Assembly (NCBI GenBank): GCA_034437075.1
Contig: DAOTVD010000266.1
Location: forward strand, 11,097 to 75,096
Reading direction: 5' to 3'
Length of the DNA stretch: 64,000 nt
Source: Anaerolineae bacterium
Lineage (GTDB): Bacteria > Chloroflexota > Anaerolineae > Aggregatilineales > J027
Made by a program: the position numbers and the translations under genes. Below, in pieces: positions 704 through 53,971 of this stretch (within the stretch, counting starts at the first letter, position 1; each line of letters begins with the position of its first letter). Under the pieces are notes generated by a model. That model made no database searches. It was not told the origin of the DNA and worked only from the letters and a program-made list of their open reading frames with translations.

Positions 704-1426
704 ATGAATAACCTGAAACGTACCACCGCCATCATCCTGATTATCGAGGGATTGCTCATTTTCGCGCCGACGATCATCTTGGGGGCGGCGATCAACTGGC
801 CCGCCAACCTGGATGCCCCCGCTAGCGAGGTACTCGTCGATATTTACAACGAAGCTGACGCTGTAACCCTCGGCTATTTCTCGTACCTGATTTATTCGAT
901 CTTGTTCTTTCCGGTTATCGCGCTGGCCGTTCGCGTGGCGGCGGGCGATGACGATACGCCCAACCTGTACGTGCGCTTGGCGCTCGGCTTTGCGGCGGTT
1001 TCGGCTCTGGCGCGGAGTATCGGCATTATCCGCTGGTTGGCCGCTATGCCTGCCTTGGCAGAAACCTATAACGCGGCGGATACCAGCCCGGCTACCCGCG
1101 ACGCCATTCTGGTCAGCTATGACATGCTGAACAACTTTGGCGGCGCGATTGGCGAAATCCTGGGCGTGAGCATGTTTGCGTCGCTAGCCATGCTGATGCT
1201 GACGGTTGTTATCTTTCAGCAGCGCGGTTTGCCGCTGTGGACGGGCTATTTCGGGCTCGTATCGGTGGTTATGCTGCTGGTGCCCGCTCTGGAGATTTTC
1301 GGCATCGACCCCGGCGTATTTTTGACCATCAGCGTAGCGGTCGTGCAGTTCTGGTTCCTATTCGTGGGCGGCTATCTTCTGTTTGCGGGTCGCCGCGCCG
1401 AGAAACTGACCCCCGCCACAGCTTAA
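704..1426 (+). CDS. Hypothetical polytopic membrane protein (DUF4386-like)
   Basis: ORF 653..1426. The preferred start is ATG 704, 7 nt after AGAGGA. There are several hydrophobic segments. The TAA stop abuts the end of a MITE copy. Confidence 0.65.
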   Translation: MNNLKRTTAIILIIEGLLIFAPTIILGAAINWPANLDAPASEVLVDIYNEADAVTLGYFSYLIYSILFFPVIALAVRVAAGDDDTPNLYVRLALGFAAVSALARSIGIIRWLAAMPALAETYNAADTSPATRDAILVSYDMLNNFGGAIGEILGVSMFASLAMLMLTVVIFQQRGLPLWTGYFGLVSVVMLLVPALEIFGIDPGVFLTISVAVVQFWFLFVGGYLLFAGRRAEKLTPATA

Positions 1427-1554
1427 GGCTTTCCTAGAAAAATAATTACCCCTCCCCGAACTCGGGGAGGGAGTACTACATGTGCGAGTAAATTCCCTCT
1501 CATATTCGGGGAGAGCTAGAGAGGGGTAAAACAAAAGATGCATCAAATTGGGTC
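1424..1554 (+). repeat. MITE-like element copy A (degenerate, right part missing)
   Basis: It aligns with copies B/C/D from TAAGGCTTTCCTAGAAAAATAATTACCCCTCCCC through GGGGTAAAAC, then diverges. Copy B begins directly after it. Confidence 0.75.
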
Positions 1555-1735
1555 TTAGGCTTTTCCAGAAAAATAATTACCCCTCCCCAGCCCCTCCCCG
1601 AATTCAGGGAGGGGCTATTATGCGCACGAGTAAGTTCTCCCCCCGAATTCGGGGGGAGCTAGAGGGGGGTAAAATCAAGCCGGTATCCTTTTCGACAAAA
1701 GCAAGCGGCCTAGTTAAATACTTGGAAAAGCCTTA
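1555..1735 (+). mobile_element. MITE-like element copy B (about 181 bp, TTA flanks)
   Basis: Termini are TTA|GGCTTTTCCAG ... CTTGGAAAAGCC|TTA. Internal hairpins are GCCCCTCCCCGAATTCAGGGAGGGGC and CCCCCCGAATTCGGGGGG. It is near-identical to 11309..11489 and 43177..43358. Confidence 0.85.
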
Positions 1736-10872: not shown

Positions 10873-11026
10873 GGGTAATGCCAGTATCCAGGCGACGGTT
10901 GCGAAAAGCACTTGAAATGCAATCGTGGAACCAACCAACAAAAATTGTCGGTCTTGTTCATAATTCAACAATGGCTGTAACTACTCATGGACAGTTCAAA
11001 ACAAACACAAATGTTTTTTCTGCCAA

Positions 11027-11052
11027 AACCGAGGGCTTAAGCCCTCGGTTTC
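11027..11052. terminator. Perfect 11-bp stem-loop downstream of the kinase operon
   Basis: AAACCGAGGGC-TTAA-GCCCTCGGTTT. It is A-rich before and T-rich after, so it could terminate on either strand. Confidence 0.55.
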
Positions 11053-11081
11053 ATACGGATTTGTTTTGCGTTCTCCATCAG

Positions 11082-11216
11082 CCCTCACCCCAACCCCTCT
11101 CCCAAACGGGCTTTCAGCCCTGGGAGAGGGGCAAAAAGTGTCGGTTTCGGGTCGTTTTCCCCCTCTACCAGCCGCAAAGCGGCGTTTGGGAGAGGGGGAT
11201 TAAGGGGGTGAGGGGG
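11082..11216. repeat. Pair of inverted REP-like G/C-tract hairpin units
   Basis: Unit 1: CCCTCACCCCAA + CCCCTCTCCCA..(GGGC TTTCA GCCC)..TGGGAGAGGGG. Unit 2, in opposite orientation: CCCCCTCT..(GCCGC AAA GCGGC)..AGAGGGGG + ATTAAGGGGGTGAGGGGG. Confidence 0.7.
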
Positions 11217-11290
11217 AAGAATTGGCATAGCCTGAGCAGTTACCAAATCACTTGATAAGCCCAGATCGCGCTCGATACAGATCATGGCTT

Positions 11291-11306
11291 TAAGGCTTTT
11301 CCAAGT
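11291..11306 (-). repeat. Solo MITE terminal repeat
   Basis: TAAGGCTTTTCCAAGT equals the reverse complement of the MITE right end (ACTTGGAAAAGCCTTA). It lies 2 nt before copy C. Confidence 0.7.
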
Positions 11307-11308
11307 TT

Positions 11309-11489
11309 TTAGGCTTTTCCCGAAAAATAATTACCCCTCCCCAGCCCCTCCCCGAATTCAGGGAGGGGCTATTATGCGCACGAGTAAGTTCTACCCCCGA
11401 ATTCGGGGGGAGCTAGAGGGGGGTAAAATCAAGCCGGTATCCTTTTCGACAAAAGCAAGCGGCATAGTTAAATACTTGGAAAAGCCTTA
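11309..11489 (+). mobile_element. MITE-like element copy C
   Basis: TTA|GGCTTTTCCCG ... CTTGGAAAAGCC|TTA. Internal sequence is near-identical to copies B and D. Confidence 0.85.
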
Positions 11490-11524
11490 ACTGAACCGCT
11501 GGCATTGGTAGCGCCACAGAATAA

Positions 11525-12046
11525 CGTGGTCTAGCAAAAAAAGGGGGTCGTCTGATCGCTTGGCCGAATATCAACATTGTGCAGGTCGTCAAACGCCGCA
11601 GTGCGGATGGCTTGTCGATTGCGTGTCGGATCGCACAGGGCAACACCGCGCAGGTGGAAAGGTGCCTGATGGACAGCCAACAAGGGGGTATCATCAACAC
11701 CGCATTTATCGAGCGCATCAATGCCACTGTCCGCCAGTGCTTGGCCTGTCTGTCGCGCCGGACTCGGCATCTGGCTTGCCAGGCCAAAACACCGGAAGCG
11801 GGCATGTTCCTCGTCGGTTGTGTTTACAATCTGTGTACCGACCATCACGCACGCCGCTTACCCTTGTGGCTTTCGGAACGCCGCTGTCGGTGGGTACAGC
11901 GAACGCCCGCCATGGCAGCAGGCTTAACCGATCATCGCTGGACCGTGGATGAGCTACTGACTTTCAAAATCCCGCCACCACCCTTTGTACCGCCAAAACG
12001 GCGCGGCAGACCACCGAAACGAGCCGTGCGGGGGGCTGTCACATGA
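11525..12046 (+). pseudogene. 3' remnant of a DDE transposase gene (IS1-like C-terminal region; family uncertain)
   Basis: The open frame has no plausible N-terminus. IVQVVKRR...INTAFIERINATVRQ...RRTR...YN and the tail RTPAMAAGLTDHRWTVDELL resemble C-termini of IS1-type transposases. The catalytic N-terminal half is absent. It starts about 35 nt after MITE copy C. Confidence 0.6.
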
Positions 12047-12077
12047 CCACGCTATCTTGTGGAGATACCAAGCGACT

Positions 12078-13013
12078 TTAGGTCGCCAAAAATTCGGCGA
12101 TTTGCGAGGCAGTGCCCAGGTTCACGCGCGCCGTTTGGCGGTCGATGCGTTTGACCAGCCCAGTCAGCACATCGCCAGGCCCCAATTCGATAATGGTGGT
12201 GACCCCAGCAGCAAGCATGGTTTGCACGCTGGTTTGCCAGCGGACATTAGCGGTCATTTGGGCGGTCAGTTCGGCGCGCAACTCATCCACGGTGGTCAGC
12301 GCCTGCCCGGTGACATTGCCGACAATGGGCACTTGTGGCGCGGTAAGTGCTGCCGCTGCTACAGCTTCGGCGAAGGCAGCCGCAGCATTGGCCATCAATG
12401 GCGAGTGAACAGCTACGCTCACCGGAAGTTGAATCGCGCGTTTGGCGCCTTTTGCCCGCGCGGCGTCTAACGCGCTTTCGATGCCTGCCACGGTGCCAGA
12501 AATGACCACCTGACCAGGACAGTTATCATTCGCGACGACGACCAAGTCGGGTACATCGGCGCAGATAGCACTCACGTCATCCAGGGAAAGACCCAAAATT
12601 GCAGCCACAGCGCCCGGCGTTTGTTCGCCCACTTCGGCCATCAGATCGGCGCGGCGTTGTACCAGGCGCAAGCCATCTTCGAATGGCAAGGCTCCCCCGG
12701 CGACCAACGCGGTAAATTCACCCAGGCTATGCCCGGCCATATAGGCGGGTTGGGGTACATCCTGCGCGGCTAAGACACGCCACACCGCCACCCCAACCAC
12801 GAACAGCGCAGGTTGCGTATAGCGCGTTTGGTTGAGTTGTTCGGCGGGGCCAGCGAAGCATAAGGCACTCAGCGCATACCCGAGCACATCATCCGCCATG
12901 CGAAAGGTCTCGTCCGCCACGGGATAGGCTATGGCGATGTCTTGCCCCATACCCACTTGTTGCGATCCCTGGCCAGGGAAAACAAAGGCACTCCGTGAGG
13001 GGTCGTAAGCCAT
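12078..13013 (-). CDS. fabD: Malonyl-CoA:ACP transacylase
   Basis: FVFPGQGSQQVGMG and the active-site GHSLGE. About 311 aa. It sits downstream of rpmF, as in fab operons. Confidence 0.92.
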   Translation of the reverse strand: MAYDPSRSAFVFPGQGSQQVGMGQDIAIAYPVADETFRMADDVLGYALSALCFAGPAEQLNQTRYTQPALFVVGVAVWRVLAAQDVPQPAYMAGHSLGEFTALVAGGALPFEDGLRLVQRRADLMAEVGEQTPGAVAAILGLSLDDVSAICADVPDLVVVANDNCPGQVVISGTVAGIESALDAARAKGAKRAIQLPVSVAVHSPLMANAAAAFAEAVAAAALTAPQVPIVGNVTGQALTTVDELRAELTAQMTANVRWQTSVQTMLAAGVTTIIELGPGDVLTGLVKRIDRQTARVNLGTASQIAEFLAT

Positions 13014-27865: not shown

Positions 27866-27871
27866 TTGAGG

Positions 27872-28096
27872 CACGCCTGCTGTGTACGTGATGGTCGCAA
27901 GCCGTTTCGGGCCAACACCTAACTAAGAGGGCGAACGCCGTTCAAGTGTGGATGTGGTAGGCACTGCGGGTGCCAAGACTGATCCACTTGGCAGTTCCCC
28001 CACCTGCGTAAAGCAGGTTCGAAAACGCGCGTTCACACGGCATAGCGGGTGGCTCTTATCTTGACCCCACATTTATCTTTTGGGGTCGTTTTTTTT
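27872..28096 (+). ncRNA. Candidate small structured RNA (unknown family)
   Basis: It is flanked by minus-strand genes only. Stems: CAAGTG(TG)GAT/ATCCACTTG enclosing GGCAC-TGCGG-GTGCC, and CCTGC-GTAAA-GCAGG. The 5' segment CTGCTGTGTACGTG is complementary (with wobbles and a bulge) to CGCGTTCACACGGCA near the 3' end. It ends in GACCCCA-loop-TGGGGTC plus T8 (28063-28096). Confidence 0.4.
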
Positions 28097-39014: not shown

Positions 39015-39086
39015 GAATAGCCTTTCTGCGTTTTGTGTGCTGCACATAACAAATCAAGCGGCCTTCATGAGCCGCTCGATGGTGTG

Positions 39087-39158
39087 TATCCCCACCAGGA
39101 CTCGAACCTGGGCCTTTGGCTCCGGAGGCCAACGCTCTATCCTCTGAGCTATGGGGAC
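39087..39158 (-). tRNA. tRNA-Arg (CCG)
   Basis: Manual cloverleaf: GTCCCCA TA GCTC AGAGGATA GAGC G TTGGC CT-CCG-GA GCCAA AGGC CCAGG TTCGAGT CCTGG TGGGGAT A. No encoded CCA. Confidence 0.85.
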
Positions 39159-41881: not shown

Positions 41882-42031
41882 GCGTCCTCTTGTTTGTTCG
41901 ATGTCGCATTTGCTGCGCACACAAATTGTATCTATTGTAACTTAACACAAGTTTAAGCGCGTGGGCAGACCGCGTGTTTTGGGCTATGCTCCCCCGTATA
42001 AACCCTATTGTTGAGGCAAAGGACCCCGTAT

Positions 42032-43180
42032 ATGCAAGATTTACTGACGTATTTTCGGGCGCGGCAGGACGATCTCATCGCCGCAACCGAGCGCCTGGTG
42101 ACCTATGAATCCTTCACGGCGGATAAACCCCGTGTCGATGCCCTCATCGCCGTGCTAGAGGCGGATTTACAAGCCTTGGGCGCGCACCTCACGCACCATC
42201 CGCGCGAGGAGGTCGGCGATATTTTGCTAGCCGAATGGCAGCGTGAAGCGCCCGGCGCGCCTATCCTGATGCTAGCCCATGTGGATACGGTCTGGCCACC
42301 AGGCACACTGGCGGACGCGGTGCCGCTGCAACGCGACGACCATAAGCTCCATGGGCCAGGCACAGTGGATATGAAGGCCGGTATCGTCATTGCTATCGAA
42401 GCCGTGCACGCCCTGCAAGTCCGCGACGAAATGCCCGCGCGGCCTATTCGCCTCTTGCTGACCACAGATGAAGAAACAGGCAGTTTGCATAGCCGCGATC
42501 TCATCGTGCAGACCGCGCAAGATTGCTGCCTGAGCTTAGTGTTAGAAGGCAGCGCAGAAGGCGAAAGCCTGAAGACCTCGCGCAAGGGCAATGCCAAATA
42601 TTGGGTGACAGCCCAGGGCAAAGCTGCCCATGCGGGCCTGGAGCCGGAAGCCGGGGTGAATGCTATCATCGAACTCGCGCACCAGGCCATCGCCGTGAAT
42701 GCGTTAAATGACCTGCGCGCGGGCACCTCCGTCACCGTATCTATTTTTGAGGGCGGCGGCGTGGCCAATGTCGTCCCGGCGCGTGCAGAACTCTTTGCAG
42801 ATGTGCGCTATTTTTCTCAGGACGAAGCCGAACGGATTGATGCGGCGGTACGCGCCCTAGAACCTGCGACATTTGGCGCGACACTAGCTGTCCGGGGCGG
42901 CATCGAGCGCCCGCCCATGGAACGCACCGCGCAGACTGTGCGCGCCATGGCGCAAGCTCAACGGCTTGCGGAGGGGCTTGGCTTGCCCTTGGGCGAAGCG
43001 GCGGTGGGCGGCGTCAGCGATGGCAATTACACCGCCCAAGCGGGCATCCCGACCCTGGATGGACTCGGCGCGAGCGGCGCCGGCGCACATGCCCTGCACG
43101 AGCACATCTTAACTCGCAGTCTGCCGCGCCGGGCGGCGCTGGTGGCGTCCATTCTGCGCGACTGGGATGAATCGGCTTAG
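42032..43180 (+). CDS. M20-family metallopeptidase (carboxypeptidase G2-like)
   Basis: LAHVDTVWP, TTDEETGS, and a dimerisation-domain pattern. ATG at 42032. The TAG stop is formed at the MITE junction. Confidence 0.85.
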   Translation: MQDLLTYFRARQDDLIAATERLVTYESFTADKPRVDALIAVLEADLQALGAHLTHHPREEVGDILLAEWQREAPGAPILMLAHVDTVWPPGTLADAVPLQRDDHKLHGPGTVDMKAGIVIAIEAVHALQVRDEMPARPIRLLLTTDEETGSLHSRDLIVQTAQDCCLSLVLEGSAEGESLKTSRKGNAKYWVTAQGKAAHAGLEPEAGVNAIIELAHQAIAVNALNDLRAGTSVTVSIFEGGGVANVVPARAELFADVRYFSQDEAERIDAAVRALEPATFGATLAVRGGIERPPMERTAQTVRAMAQAQRLAEGLGLPLGEAAVGGVSDGNYTAQAGIPTLDGLGASGAGAHALHEHILTRSLPRRAALVASILRDWDESA

Positions 43181-43358
43181 GCTTTTCCAGAAAAATAATT
43201 ACCCCTCCCCATCCCCCTCCCCGAATTCAGGGAGGGGCTATTATGCGCACGAGTAAGTTCTCCCCCTGAATTCGGGGGGAGCTAGAGGGGGGTAAAATCA
43301 AGACGGTATCCTTTTCGACAAAAGCAAGCGGCATAGTTAAATACTTGGAAAAGCCTTA
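43177..43358 (+). mobile_element. MITE-like element copy D, inserted between convergent genes
   Basis: TTA|GGCTTTTCCAG ... CTTGGAAAAGCC|TTA. Both flanking TTA triplets are used in the stop codons of the neighbouring genes. Confidence 0.88.
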
Positions 43359-44888
43359 ATCTGCCGTTTCCGCCTCGGTGCGCAGACGCTCCCGCGCGGC
43401 GAAGACTTCTGCGCGAGTGGTGATGCCGCGCATGAGCGTGATAAAGGCGTGCAAGCTGGGCGCCCGCGCGCGGATTTCGTAAATCGCCGCGCCGAGTGGG
43501 TCGCCGCCACCGCCTTCGGTTACAATCACCGTGCTGCCATCCGGCGCGGTTTCGACGGTGGGGTTGGCCTGGTAGCCCACATTAAACGCAAACCAGGCTT
43601 GGTTCAGTTTGCGCAGCCCGCTATGGCGCGCCCCAATGGCCATTGCCTGTTCAGCCGCCTCTACACGACCCAGGCCCAGCAGATAGTCTGCCATCAAACG
43701 GGTGTGGCCGATCCAGTCTTCGCGCGTGCGCGGCATTGGCGCGCCATCAGGATACGATAGGGGCGCGAGATTCCGCCGGGCCGCGTTCGTCTGCTGGGCG
43801 TCTAACACCGTCTGCGCGGCGGCGGCGTAGCCGGAGTGCAGCAGAAAATCAGCTAGGGCGCGCGTCTGCACACGTTGCGCTTCATAGGCGCGCGTCAGGG
43901 GGGATGTATAGGCCCCGTCCACCGCTGCAACTGTGCGCTGGCGCCCCTCGGCGGCGGCCAACAACGCGCGATAATCCGGGATGGGCTGCAAATAGACCTC
44001 GCCACGGGCGAGTGCCTGGGGGTAAAAGCGCTCGATCACCCGATTGCCGATTTCGTTGCCAAACAGCGTGGCGGTCGTCTCGTTGATGATGCGCGTGTCG
44101 GGATGGGTGAAATAATTGATCCCTAGCGGATAAAACACCAGATAATGATGCAGCCATTCGTGCGCGGTGACCTCAAAAGCGACCACCGCGCGGTCGGTTT
44201 CGCGGATCATGGCGGGCCAGACGCCCACGCCGCCGATGCGCGTGATATACACGGCGCGTTCAGGCACAGCCCGCGCGATGGTTTCTTCCAGCGCGACCCG
44301 TTCTTCAAAGGTCATCGCTTGCAGAGTCAGCGTAAAATTTTGGCGAATTTCATCACGCGGCGAGACGATCAGCACATCCGGCACTTGCAGAAAATGCATA
44401 CTCACGGGCGGTAAGACCTGCCCCAGCAGCGCGAAACCTTCCTCAGCCAACACGGCGCTCACCTGTGTTTCGATAATTTCTTCGGCCAGCAAACGACTCT
44501 CGGCCAGGTCGGCTTCTAGGGCGCGGATGTTAGCATTTAGCTCATCGTCGGGCGCGGCGCCGGATTGCAATATCTGGTCGCGCTGGCCTTGGAGCGTCCA
44601 TAACTGATTTTGGGTCGCGAAATAATCCAGCAGGTAGGCGCGTTGTGCGCCTTCGGGGATGTATGCGCCATAGCCGAATAGGGTCTGTTGAGCCTTGGCC
44701 CACAGCGCTTCGATTTCCCATTCGATGTAGTCAAAGCTCTGGTGGCGCGTTAGGGCATAGATGCGGCCTCGGGGGCTATCTTCGGGCAAGCCTTCGCCAC
44801 TGAATAGCCAAGCGATGAGGAAAAACAGCGCCAGCAAGCGGAGGGCGGTCCATAAGTGGCGCAAAAGTCGTTTGATGCGATGTAGCAT
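43356..44888 (-). CDS. Hypothetical membrane-anchored protein with an HExxH motif (putative metalloprotease)
   Basis: 510 aa with an N-terminal TM segment (LRLLALFFLIAWLF) and TAHEWLHHY (HExxH). Confidence 0.6.
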   Translation of the reverse strand: MLHRIKRLLRHLWTALRLLALFFLIAWLFSGEGLPEDSPRGRIYALTRHQSFDYIEWEIEALWAKAQQTLFGYGAYIPEGAQRAYLLDYFATQNQLWTLQGQRDQILQSGAAPDDELNANIRALEADLAESRLLAEEIIETQVSAVLAEEGFALLGQVLPPVSMHFLQVPDVLIVSPRDEIRQNFTLTLQAMTFEERVALEETIARAVPERAVYITRIGGVGVWPAMIRETDRAVVAFEVTAHEWLHHYLVFYPLGINYFTHPDTRIINETTATLFGNEIGNRVIERFYPQALARGEVYLQPIPDYRALLAAAEGRQRTVAAVDGAYTSPLTRAYEAQRVQTRALADFLLHSGYAAAAQTVLDAQQTNAARRNLAPLSYPDGAPMPRTREDWIGHTRLMADYLLGLGRVEAAEQAMAIGARHSGLRKLNQAWFAFNVGYQANPTVETAPDGSTVIVTEGGGGDPLGAAIYEIRARAPSLHAFITLMRGITTRAEVFAARERLRTEAETAD

Positions 44889-44963: not shown

Positions 44964-46217
44964 TTATTCGTAGCGGAAATTCAGCACGGCCAGCCCGCCG
45001 AACACCACGCCCATCAGCAACATGACGCCCAACGAAGGCAATATATCCATTAGCGTGCCTTGCTGAAATTGCAGTTCGGTGAACGCATCCATGGCCCAGG
45101 CAATCGGGGCCAGACGGCCTATCGCCTGGATGAAATCTGGATTCAGTTCACTGGGCCACCACGCGCCCCCCAACGGTGCCGCCGTCAGGGCCAACATCAG
45201 CGCGATCCCGGCGGCCTGGTCGGCAGTACGCACCAGGGTACTCAGCAACAGCCCAAGTCCTACGCCTGCTGAACAAAACGCCAACACGATCCCAACCACG
45301 CCTAGCGGGTCATCCCCAAAGTTGACGCCCAAGAAGAAATAGCCTAGCAAAATGAACAAACCAAACTGAAGCACCGCGAAGACATATTCGCCCAATACTT
45401 TGCCCATCAAGATCACACCGCGCCGCACGGGCATCACGATCAGGCGTTGCAAGGTGCCGCGCTCGCGCTCGAAGACCAAAAACGAGGCCGTATTCATGAG
45501 CGTGATGAAAACAAACATGCTCGCGATGCCCGGCACACTCTGATTGGTGCCTGTCGCGACATTCGGCGCGGAAGAATCCACATTCACGATGGCGGGCGGC
45601 GCTTCAAGCGCGGCTTGGGCTTGGCTCAGCAACGCTGCAAACGCGCCAGCTTCATCCTCCGCGCCGAGTTGCTCGGCGGCGACCTCGGTGGCGGCGTTGG
45701 CAATGCGAACGCTGCTATTGATGCGGTCAACCGCCGTGATGACCGTATTCTGTGTCACGGTCGCGGCGTTGAAGTCTTGGTCGGCGCGATACACCAGCGA
45801 CACGGCGTCGCCATTGCGTAGTTGCTCAGTGAAGCCCGCCGGGATTTCGAGCGCGGCAATCGCATCTCGGTCTTCTAGGCGCGCGGTGCCGATGTCCTCG
45901 TAGCGAGCATCCTCAGCCAGGCTGCATGCCTCGGGGTTATCATCCGCGCCATACACGCAAATGATGACCGCTTCGGTATCTCCGGCGACATCGCGCAAGG
46001 CCGCGATGAGTTCGGCAGCCTGCGGTTCGGGTTCTCCGGCGTCGTCCACATCCATATTCGCCACATCCACGCGCAACGCGGGCACTTCCGCCGTGATGGC
46101 CAAGCCGAGGATAATCATCATGACGATGGGCATCAAGAATGACGTCACAAAGATCGCGCCGCTTTGCAATTTCAGCAAGATGGATAGGCGGGTCAGATTC
46201 ATGATTGTGTTTAGCAT
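44964..46217 (-). CDS. ABC-2-type transporter permease
   Basis: 417 aa. N-terminal TM, large extracytoplasmic loop, then five C-terminal TM segments (ABC-2 architecture). Confidence 0.8.
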   Translation of the reverse strand: MLNTIMNLTRLSILLKLQSGAIFVTSFLMPIVMMIILGLAITAEVPALRVDVANMDVDDAGEPEPQAAELIAALRDVAGDTEAVIICVYGADDNPEACSLAEDARYEDIGTARLEDRDAIAALEIPAGFTEQLRNGDAVSLVYRADQDFNAATVTQNTVITAVDRINSSVRIANAATEVAAEQLGAEDEAGAFAALLSQAQAALEAPPAIVNVDSSAPNVATGTNQSVPGIASMFVFITLMNTASFLVFERERGTLQRLIVMPVRRGVILMGKVLGEYVFAVLQFGLFILLGYFFLGVNFGDDPLGVVGIVLAFCSAGVGLGLLLSTLVRTADQAAGIALMLALTAAPLGGAWWPSELNPDFIQAIGRLAPIAWAMDAFTELQFQQGTLMDILPSLGVMLLMGVVFGGLAVLNFRYE

Positions 46218-53898: not shown

Positions 53899-53971
53899 CA
53901 GGGGCACGAGGACTTGAACCCCGAACCTTTGGTTTTGGAGACCAACGCTCTGCCAGTTGAGCTATGCCCCT
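53899..53971 (-). tRNA. tRNA-Trp (CCA)
   Basis: Manual cloverleaf: AGGGGCA TA GCTC AACTGGCA GAGC G TTGGT CT-CCA-AA ACCAA AGGTT CGGGG TTCAAGT CCTCG TGCCCCT G. Confidence 0.88.

Follow-up and report, generated by a model that had tools for sequence, protein, structure and literature searches.

A family of probable MITEs with TTA/TAA flanks in an Anaerolineales genome

Prokaryotic MITEs (transposable elements of miniature size with inverted repeats), such as Nezha in Anabaena/Nostoc, Chunjie in Geobacter, Correia in Neisseria and RUP in S. pneumoniae, are non-coding, multi-copy sequences of about 100–250 bp, featuring terminal inverted repeats, flanking direct repeats and a very stable folding; they tend to occupy intergenic or gene-end sites, with empty and filled sites among relatives and with fusions to neighbouring open reading frames (ORFs) (PMC3184786). 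All these features are shared by the repeated element described here, found in a 64,000-nt stretch of DNA (contig DAOTVD010000266.1, positions 11,097 to 75,096), indicated as a whole as "the window". Among the known families, Correia and RUP duplicate TA. Harbinger and Tourist duplications are typically TTA or TAA, the IS1031 group of insertion sequences (IS) duplicates TNA, and the ends of IS5-family and Tourist elements commonly begin with GG or GGC. More generally, 3-bp duplications and a preference for AT-rich targets characterize both PIF/Harbinger and IS5 elements (PMC4122938, PMC12730594).

Three near-identical full copies of the element are present in the window, all on the + strand: copy 1 spans 1555–1735 (TTA at 1555–1557, element at 1558–1732, TTA at 1733–1735), copy 2 spans 11309–11489 (element at 11312–11486) and copy 3 spans 43177–43358 (element at 43180–43355). 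In each of them, TTA abuts the element on the left and on the right. The three copies, already noticed at these positions by an earlier reading of the bare sequence (from here on, the sequence-only reading), match pairwise at 170–172 of 175–176 positions (97–98%). The size of about 181 bp then assigned to them holds when both TTAs are counted (181–182 bp), but the element proper, running from GGC to GCC, is 175 bp long in copies 1 and 2 and 176 bp in copy 3. Its conserved block begins with GGCTTTTCC and finishes with GGAAAAGCC. The terminal inverted repeats claimed at that stage, GGCTTTTCCA / TGGAAAAGCC, are confirmed: located in copy 1 at 1558–1567 and 1723–1732 (+ strand), they match at 10/10 bp in copies 1 and 3 and at 9/10 in copy 2, and are followed inward by an imperfect, AT-rich matching stretch. 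Chance alone is far from explaining the counts: the window contains GGCTTTTCC at 7 places where 0.74 would be expected, 7 being reached in none of 100 shuffles, and the 19-mers of the left and right ends occur 4 times each, against 0.00–0.02 expected. The two GC-rich hairpins centred on GAATTC, also anticipated, are found in copy 1 at 1590–1615 and 1637–1658, and both belong to the minimum-energy fold, of which they make up the dominant part. For the whole element, the predicted folding energy is -79.7 kcal/mol on the + strand (z = -5.8), while z = -7.5 on the - strand.

In all, three full copies and two remnants are found within 64 kb, and about 22 other contigs contribute a further 23 ORFs derived from the element. 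A small, non-coding sequence, terminal inverted repeats, target duplication, dispersed near-identical copies and an empty site in a relative are thus observed together, as in MITEs. With a probability of about 85%, the element is a non-autonomous MITE that depends for its movement on a DDE transposase, acting in trans and making 3-bp duplications. Such a transposase would bind both ends, recognizing the 10-bp GGCTTTTCCA repeat and about 15 bp of AT-rich subterminal sequence; it would insert the element, facing one way or the other, at the triplet TTA (TAA on the complementary strand), cutting the target with a 3-nt stagger, whose repair would duplicate the triplet. The interior consists of GC-rich palindromic hairpins only, which differ between subfamilies with common ends. 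In this genome, of 57% G+C, insertions would be tolerated mainly at gene ends, within other repeats and within IS remnants; insertion into a TAA stop codon is silent, with TTA plus G providing a TAG at the left junction, and with TTA/TAA restored at the right one.

A central point is whether the flanking TTA belongs to the target or to the element. The alignment of the three copies is by itself not decisive, because TTA is conserved on both sides. The surroundings of copy 2 are more informative. On its left lies, on the - strand, the outer part (11291–11311) of an older copy's right arm, composed of a TAA flank (11291–11293) followed by GGCTTTTCCAAGTTTTTA; the arm resumes after copy 2 with an inner piece, also on the - strand (11490–11526). 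When copy 2 and one TTA are deleted, the two pieces join into an arm of about 55 nt, whose reverse complement corresponds to the final 55 nt, approximately, of the element: the alignment to the consensus right arm scores 57, against a mean of 16.7 and a maximum of 30 for shuffled sequences. Because this deletion rebuilds the older right arm, copy 2 is a nested insertion into the TTA of GTTAAATACTTGG, within an older, inverted copy. The intact copies, which represent the paralogous empty site, feature a single TTA at that point (GTTAAATACTTGG), while the split copy has a TTA on either side of the insert; the TTA flank is, on this evidence, duplicated target DNA, and not part of the element. The same nested-insertion logic has been applied to eukaryotic transposons (PMC4122938). 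What had been described as a solo end at 11291–11306 does contain the end sequence, but is the outer piece of the arm split by copy 2.

Flanks were also tabulated, as the sequence-only reading had proposed. Among the five copies readable as DNA, TTA is found on both sides in four: copies 1, 2 and 3, and L005, a relative located on another contig. Further copies come from a protein search, where a reading frame open through the whole element was used as query: this is the source of the 23 distinct ORFs mentioned above (18 clusters and further cluster members), on NCBI contigs other than that of the window. Their records are of the same type as that of a 76,241-nt contig, taken as the source of the window, which bears a copy (P0144) of the 510-aa protein encoded next to copy 3. 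The frame terminates with ...YLEKP, and the codon that follows reports bases 2 and 3 of the flank and the next base. Two of the 23 ORFs are truncated or mutated at the right end; in the 21 with an intact end, this codon is K in 6, N in 6, Y in 6 and a stop in 3, while H, Q, D and E never occur. The right flank is N-[T/A]-A in 21 out of 21, with 9 flanks of the TTA type and 12 of the TAA type; a tenth TTA-type flank is found in P0133, whose end is damaged. About half of the flanks across copies are TTA and half TAA relative to the element, as would be expected from a single asymmetric target, TTA (TAA on the complementary strand), entered in both orientations. When TTA is followed by a purine, a stop is formed; since this leaves a 38-codon ORF only, such copies are probably under-sampled in the ORF set. 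In one case a flank pair may be reconstructed: the tail of P0123 (...PKAFPEK, then a stop) corresponds to the left end of a second copy, preceded by xAA, and P0129, on a contig as long as that of P0123 (29,885 nt), has a matching xAA at a right end. A 3-bp target duplication, as originally suggested, is supported by the empty sites, but the flank may be either TTA or TAA, not always TTA.

A second old copy precedes copy 1. The degenerate copy previously placed at 1424–1554 exists, but it is truncated: its similarity to the element starts at 1427 and fades at about 1535, the right part being either lost or no longer recognizable. The truncated copy (1424–1535, + strand) matches positions 1–124 of the consensus, with an 11-bp deletion, and copy 1 comes directly after it; its left flank, TAA at 1424–1426, is the stop codon of a DUF4386 gene (653–1426). 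The idea that copy 1 splits this copy at the same internal TTAA was dropped: the downstream sequence scores 14, against a shuffle mean of 15.9, and the sequence after the degenerate copy, on either side of copy 1, bears no significant similarity to the right arm of the element. Both the truncated copy and the split arm are far more diverged than the young copies, which are 97–98% identical. These two age classes point to at least two waves of activity.

Copy 3 is located between an M20 peptidase gene (42008–43180, + strand; assigned by Pfam) and a convergent gene coding for 510 aa (43356–44888, - strand), inside their overlapping stop codons (TTAA). The left TTA, together with the first G of the element, forms the TAG stop of the peptidase gene, while the 510-aa gene has its TAA stop in the right TTA: both proteins are unchanged by the insertion. 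Copy 3 thus shows how a 3-bp TTA duplication lets the element occupy two overlapping stops, with neither gene damaged. The 510-aa protein, which has no Pfam family, is conserved across Anaerolineae. Its best non-identical homologue (P0002, 70% amino-acid identity) is found in a sister species, GCA_963992705.1, where the orthologous junction (L013, 7654–7657) has no insert: the two genes overlap by 4 nt as CTAG (...GACGACGCCTAGCCGGAC...). Removal of copy 3 and one TTA from the window gives ...TCGGCTTAATCTGCC..., where the genes are arranged alike but overlap in TTAA and not in CTAG. This uninterrupted junction is a further line of evidence that the flanking TTA is target DNA. The stop overlap is a 4-nt palindrome, which, by inference, would have been TTAA in this species before the insertion.

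The sequence-only reading had also suggested looking for empty sites in relatives. The site of copy 3 is empty in the sister species, but filled in a closer genome, an Anaerolineales bacterium metagenome-assembled genome (MAG; GCA_046541395.1), whose contigs (L012) are 99.98% identical to the window, and where a protein (P0001) 100% identical to the 510-aa one is encoded. Because L012 also carries copy 3, no within-species insertion polymorphism is seen at this site between the window and this MAG. Elsewhere, when window 45232–45260 is compared with L012 5240–5244, the latter lacks about 34 nt inside an ABC-2 permease gene (window ORF 44964–46217); no gene is called there in the MAG, and the difference comes either from a deletion that shifts the frame or from an assembly error. 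Two contigs, L014 from the sister MAG and the Logan contig L015 (run SRR19844289), terminate exactly at window position 12817, inside fabD (12078–13013): the shared end suggests strain-level variation or a repeat boundary starting there, with nothing unusual visible in the window sequence.

More distant relatives of the element were looked for in larger collections, where a partner IS with the same termini was also sought: genome and metagenome contigs were scanned with one exact 22-mer each, viral contigs with a 17-mer, and plasmids by BLAST. The metagenome scan gave 9 matches, 7 of which are unrelated (four are copies of one conserved coding sequence). The relatives are L005 (107 bp) and L009 (124 bp), on two other contigs, with a G+C content of 49% and 54%, versus 57% for the window. 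They have about 29 nt in common with the window family at the left end and about 20 nt at the right one, while the interiors contain different hairpins; conserved ends with free interiors are predicted by a transposase-binding constraint. L005, located 30 nt beyond the 3' end of an isoamylase-like gene, is flanked by TTA on the left and on the right. The left flank of L009 is a TAA, which is the stop of an ORF (19–408), and its right flank is TTA. No real relative was found in the GTDB species-representative genomes scanned with the 22-mer, the match in an Oscillospiraceae MAG being attributed to chance. None of the 19 matches in viral contigs has an inverted partner or further similarity. For plasmids, BLAST reported only a low-complexity similarity to the CCCCTCCCC/GGGGAGGGG hairpin, in Rhizobium and in Allocoleopsis PCC 7113; the Allocoleopsis match was discarded after inspection.

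Some points weigh against a MITE with 3-bp duplications. An autonomous IS with these termini was not found in the window, nor in genome, metagenome or viral contigs or plasmids. Paired flanks are readable as DNA in five copies only, one of which, L009, is mismatched (left TAA, right TTA). The 21 additional flanks are deduced from protein sequence, mostly for one side, and do not report the first flank base. Moreover, the TTA-flanked copies alone fit equally well a 3-bp TTA duplication or a 2-bp TA duplication plus a T of the element. The latter model corresponds to an IS630 or Tc1-mariner (Stowaway-like) MITE, where TA only is duplicated, the additional T or A being part of the element. TA adjoins the element at all junctions read as DNA, L009 (CTAA before GGC on the left, TTAA after GCC on the right) may be written as TA + AGGC...GCCT + TA, and the 2-bp and 3-bp models rebuild identical pre-insertion sequences. 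Yet, TTA-type copies would then need an extra T on the right and TAA-type copies an extra A on the left, with termini that vary while the rest stays 97–98% identical. With a 3-bp duplication, one fixed, symmetrical end (GGCTTTTCCA / TGGAAAAGCC) is sufficient, and the TTA:TAA split corresponds to orientation. A TA duplication with fixed ends is not what the copies display, and an IS630 or mariner origin is regarded as improbable. Even less weight is given to a palindrome-associated element of the IS200/IS605 type, mobilized by a single-strand HUH transposase through subterminal hairpins, at a fixed target and with no duplication. In its favour are the strong hairpins, both subterminal and internal, and the flanking motif, which is short, fixed and AT-rich; but this family lacks terminal repeats and duplications and has a one-sided target, whereas here a perfect 10-bp terminal inverted repeat is present, the motif is found on both sides and switches between TTA and TAA with orientation, and L005 and L009 keep the ends but not the hairpins. 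Because of the perfect terminal repeat and of the true duplication at the paralogous empty site, this type is excluded for practical purposes.

A similarly slight chance is assigned to a functional structured RNA or regulatory module, such as a terminator or the gene of a small RNA, whose copies would have arisen through recombination and not by transposition. The very stable predicted fold, the location of copies at the 3' ends of genes and one terminator-like match, on the - strand of the degenerate copy, speak in its favour. A conserved structured RNA gene had been indicated from the start as the alternative to a mobile repeat; however, no Rfam family is found for the element at the gathering threshold. 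The best match, mir-188, scores 31.6 bits against a threshold of 72, and a permissive scan retrieves only models of eukaryotic microRNA-precursor hairpins, at less than half their thresholds. A role as intrinsic terminator is unsupported, as the full copies have no terminator-like match. In addition, the orthologous junction of the sister species lacks the element, copies are located inside other repeats and IS remnants, and the interiors of the related elements are unrelated. Nor does the element code for a protein: the internal ORFs, 62–68 codons long, have no Pfam family match and vary only with the DNA, confirming that they are conserved as DNA only. The undescribed status of the family is based on Rfam, on sequence collections and on a full-text literature search, where the terminal sequence had no match. 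The window also contains ordinary RNA genes, unrelated to the repeat: a 6S RNA (27871–28055, + strand; 68 bits), a tRNA-Arg(CCG) (39086–39158, - strand) and a tRNA-Trp(CCA) (53899–53971, - strand).

Returning to the MITE interpretation, a full-length IS carrying the same termini, which the sequence-only reading had proposed to look for, did not emerge from the scans described above, either in the window or in the exact k-mer and BLAST searches. Two transposase remnants were considered as partners and rejected. The first, an IS1-like remnant next to copy 2 (11579–12046, + strand), is of the wrong family and has no GGAAAAGCC end. This ORF corresponds to the C-terminal 155 aa of an IS1-like transposase of about 370 aa (P0145 is 73% identical over residues 215–367); the fragment itself has no Pfam or NCBIfam match, and the matches of its full-length relatives to NCBIfam transpos_IS1, with values of 1e-9 to 1e-11, fall short of the cut-off. 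The second, an IS982 fragment in P0139, is of another family and lies outside the left end of the element. From the insertion signature, a 3-bp duplication at an AT-rich TTA/TAA target, as made by the IS5 and PIF/Harbinger groups, we infer a transposase of this kind, with no claim of membership. It is possible that the partner is an uncatalogued, IS5/Harbinger-like lineage of Chloroflexota, common to several taxa; the conserved ends, 25–30 bp long, provide a probe for it.

The choice of the target deserves some comment. GCC followed by TTAA, as in piggyBac-type insertions, is found at four junctions in the window (the three full copies and the older arm) and in L009, while an A comes after only 19% of the TTA sites of the window. 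The left flanks, being CTTA or TTTA, exclude a TTAA duplication of the piggyBac kind, as only 3 bp are duplicated; at least six other copies, furthermore, have TTA followed by C or T. A preference for TTAA, or for stop codons, is nonetheless possible. In four cases the flank is the stop codon of a gene: on both sides of copy 3, in the degenerate copy at 1424 and in L009. Stop-codon siting could equally reflect purifying selection in a gene-dense genome. That the family is adapted for homing, with TAA stop codons at the ends of genes as its targets, or else has an uncatalogued IS5/Harbinger-like partner lineage, is a speculative proposal, to which we give about the credit due to an outside chance. 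If homing were true, both upstream and convergent genes would keep their stops, and the element would fit between genes having no intergenic DNA.

Other small repeats are found near copy 2, in the interval 10873–12077, between a hybrid kinase gene and fabD, which is filled with mobile-element remnants. A second MITE-like repeat, of about 92–98 bp, lies at 10984–11081: it features imperfect terminal inverted repeats (CTCATGGACAGTTCAAAACAAA / TTTGTTTTGCGTTCTCCATCAG) and a perfect central palindrome (AAACCGAGGGCTT / AAGCCCTCGGTTT), and on other contigs (P0126, P0132, P0135, P0143) translated traces of it are found beside the main element. Logan contig L035 stops just within this repeat, at window position 11006, as expected for a multi-copy sequence. 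The adjacent 11079–11215 stretch is rich in hairpins (CCCTCACCCC...GGGGTGAGGG; CCCCTCTCCCAAACG...CGTTTGGGAGAGGGG) and is probably a third small repeat family; its translation, QPSPQPLSQTG, also adjoins a truncated element on another contig (P0140). Small multi-copy repeats in this genome break short-read assemblies, and the companion repeat near copy 2 coincides with a contig end. The main element, in turn, explains spurious hypothetical proteins of 50–190 aa and ORF fusions in these MAGs. An example is P0139, on a 44,197-nt contig that probably belongs to the source genome: the called protein, of 190 aa, is a chimera whose N-terminus is of DUF433 type, joined to a piece of an IS982-family transposase (Pfam DDE_Tnp_1_3, 7.7e-18) and to a full copy of the element, translated in frame.

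With the family described here, Chloroflexota (Anaerolineales) gain a well-delimited, recently active MITE family; literature searches turned up no described MITE from this phylum. The established understanding of MITE function is left unchanged. As far as may be tested, the sequence is unrelated to those of Nezha, Chunjie, Correia and RUP, and the host, an uncultured Anaerolineales bacterium, is also different from theirs. The ends of Nezha are in common with ISNpu3, while the element described here has no known partner IS. Chunjie duplicates 9 bp (PMC3184786), as compared with the 3-bp TTA/TAA duplication found in this family. In this respect, the closest likeness is with the IS5 family (IS1031, IS427 and ISL2 groups) and with PIF/Harbinger and its Tourist MITEs: no such transposase was found linked to these termini, and the likeness is that of the insertion signature alone, a 3-bp, AT-rich duplication being made by those elements as by the one described here.

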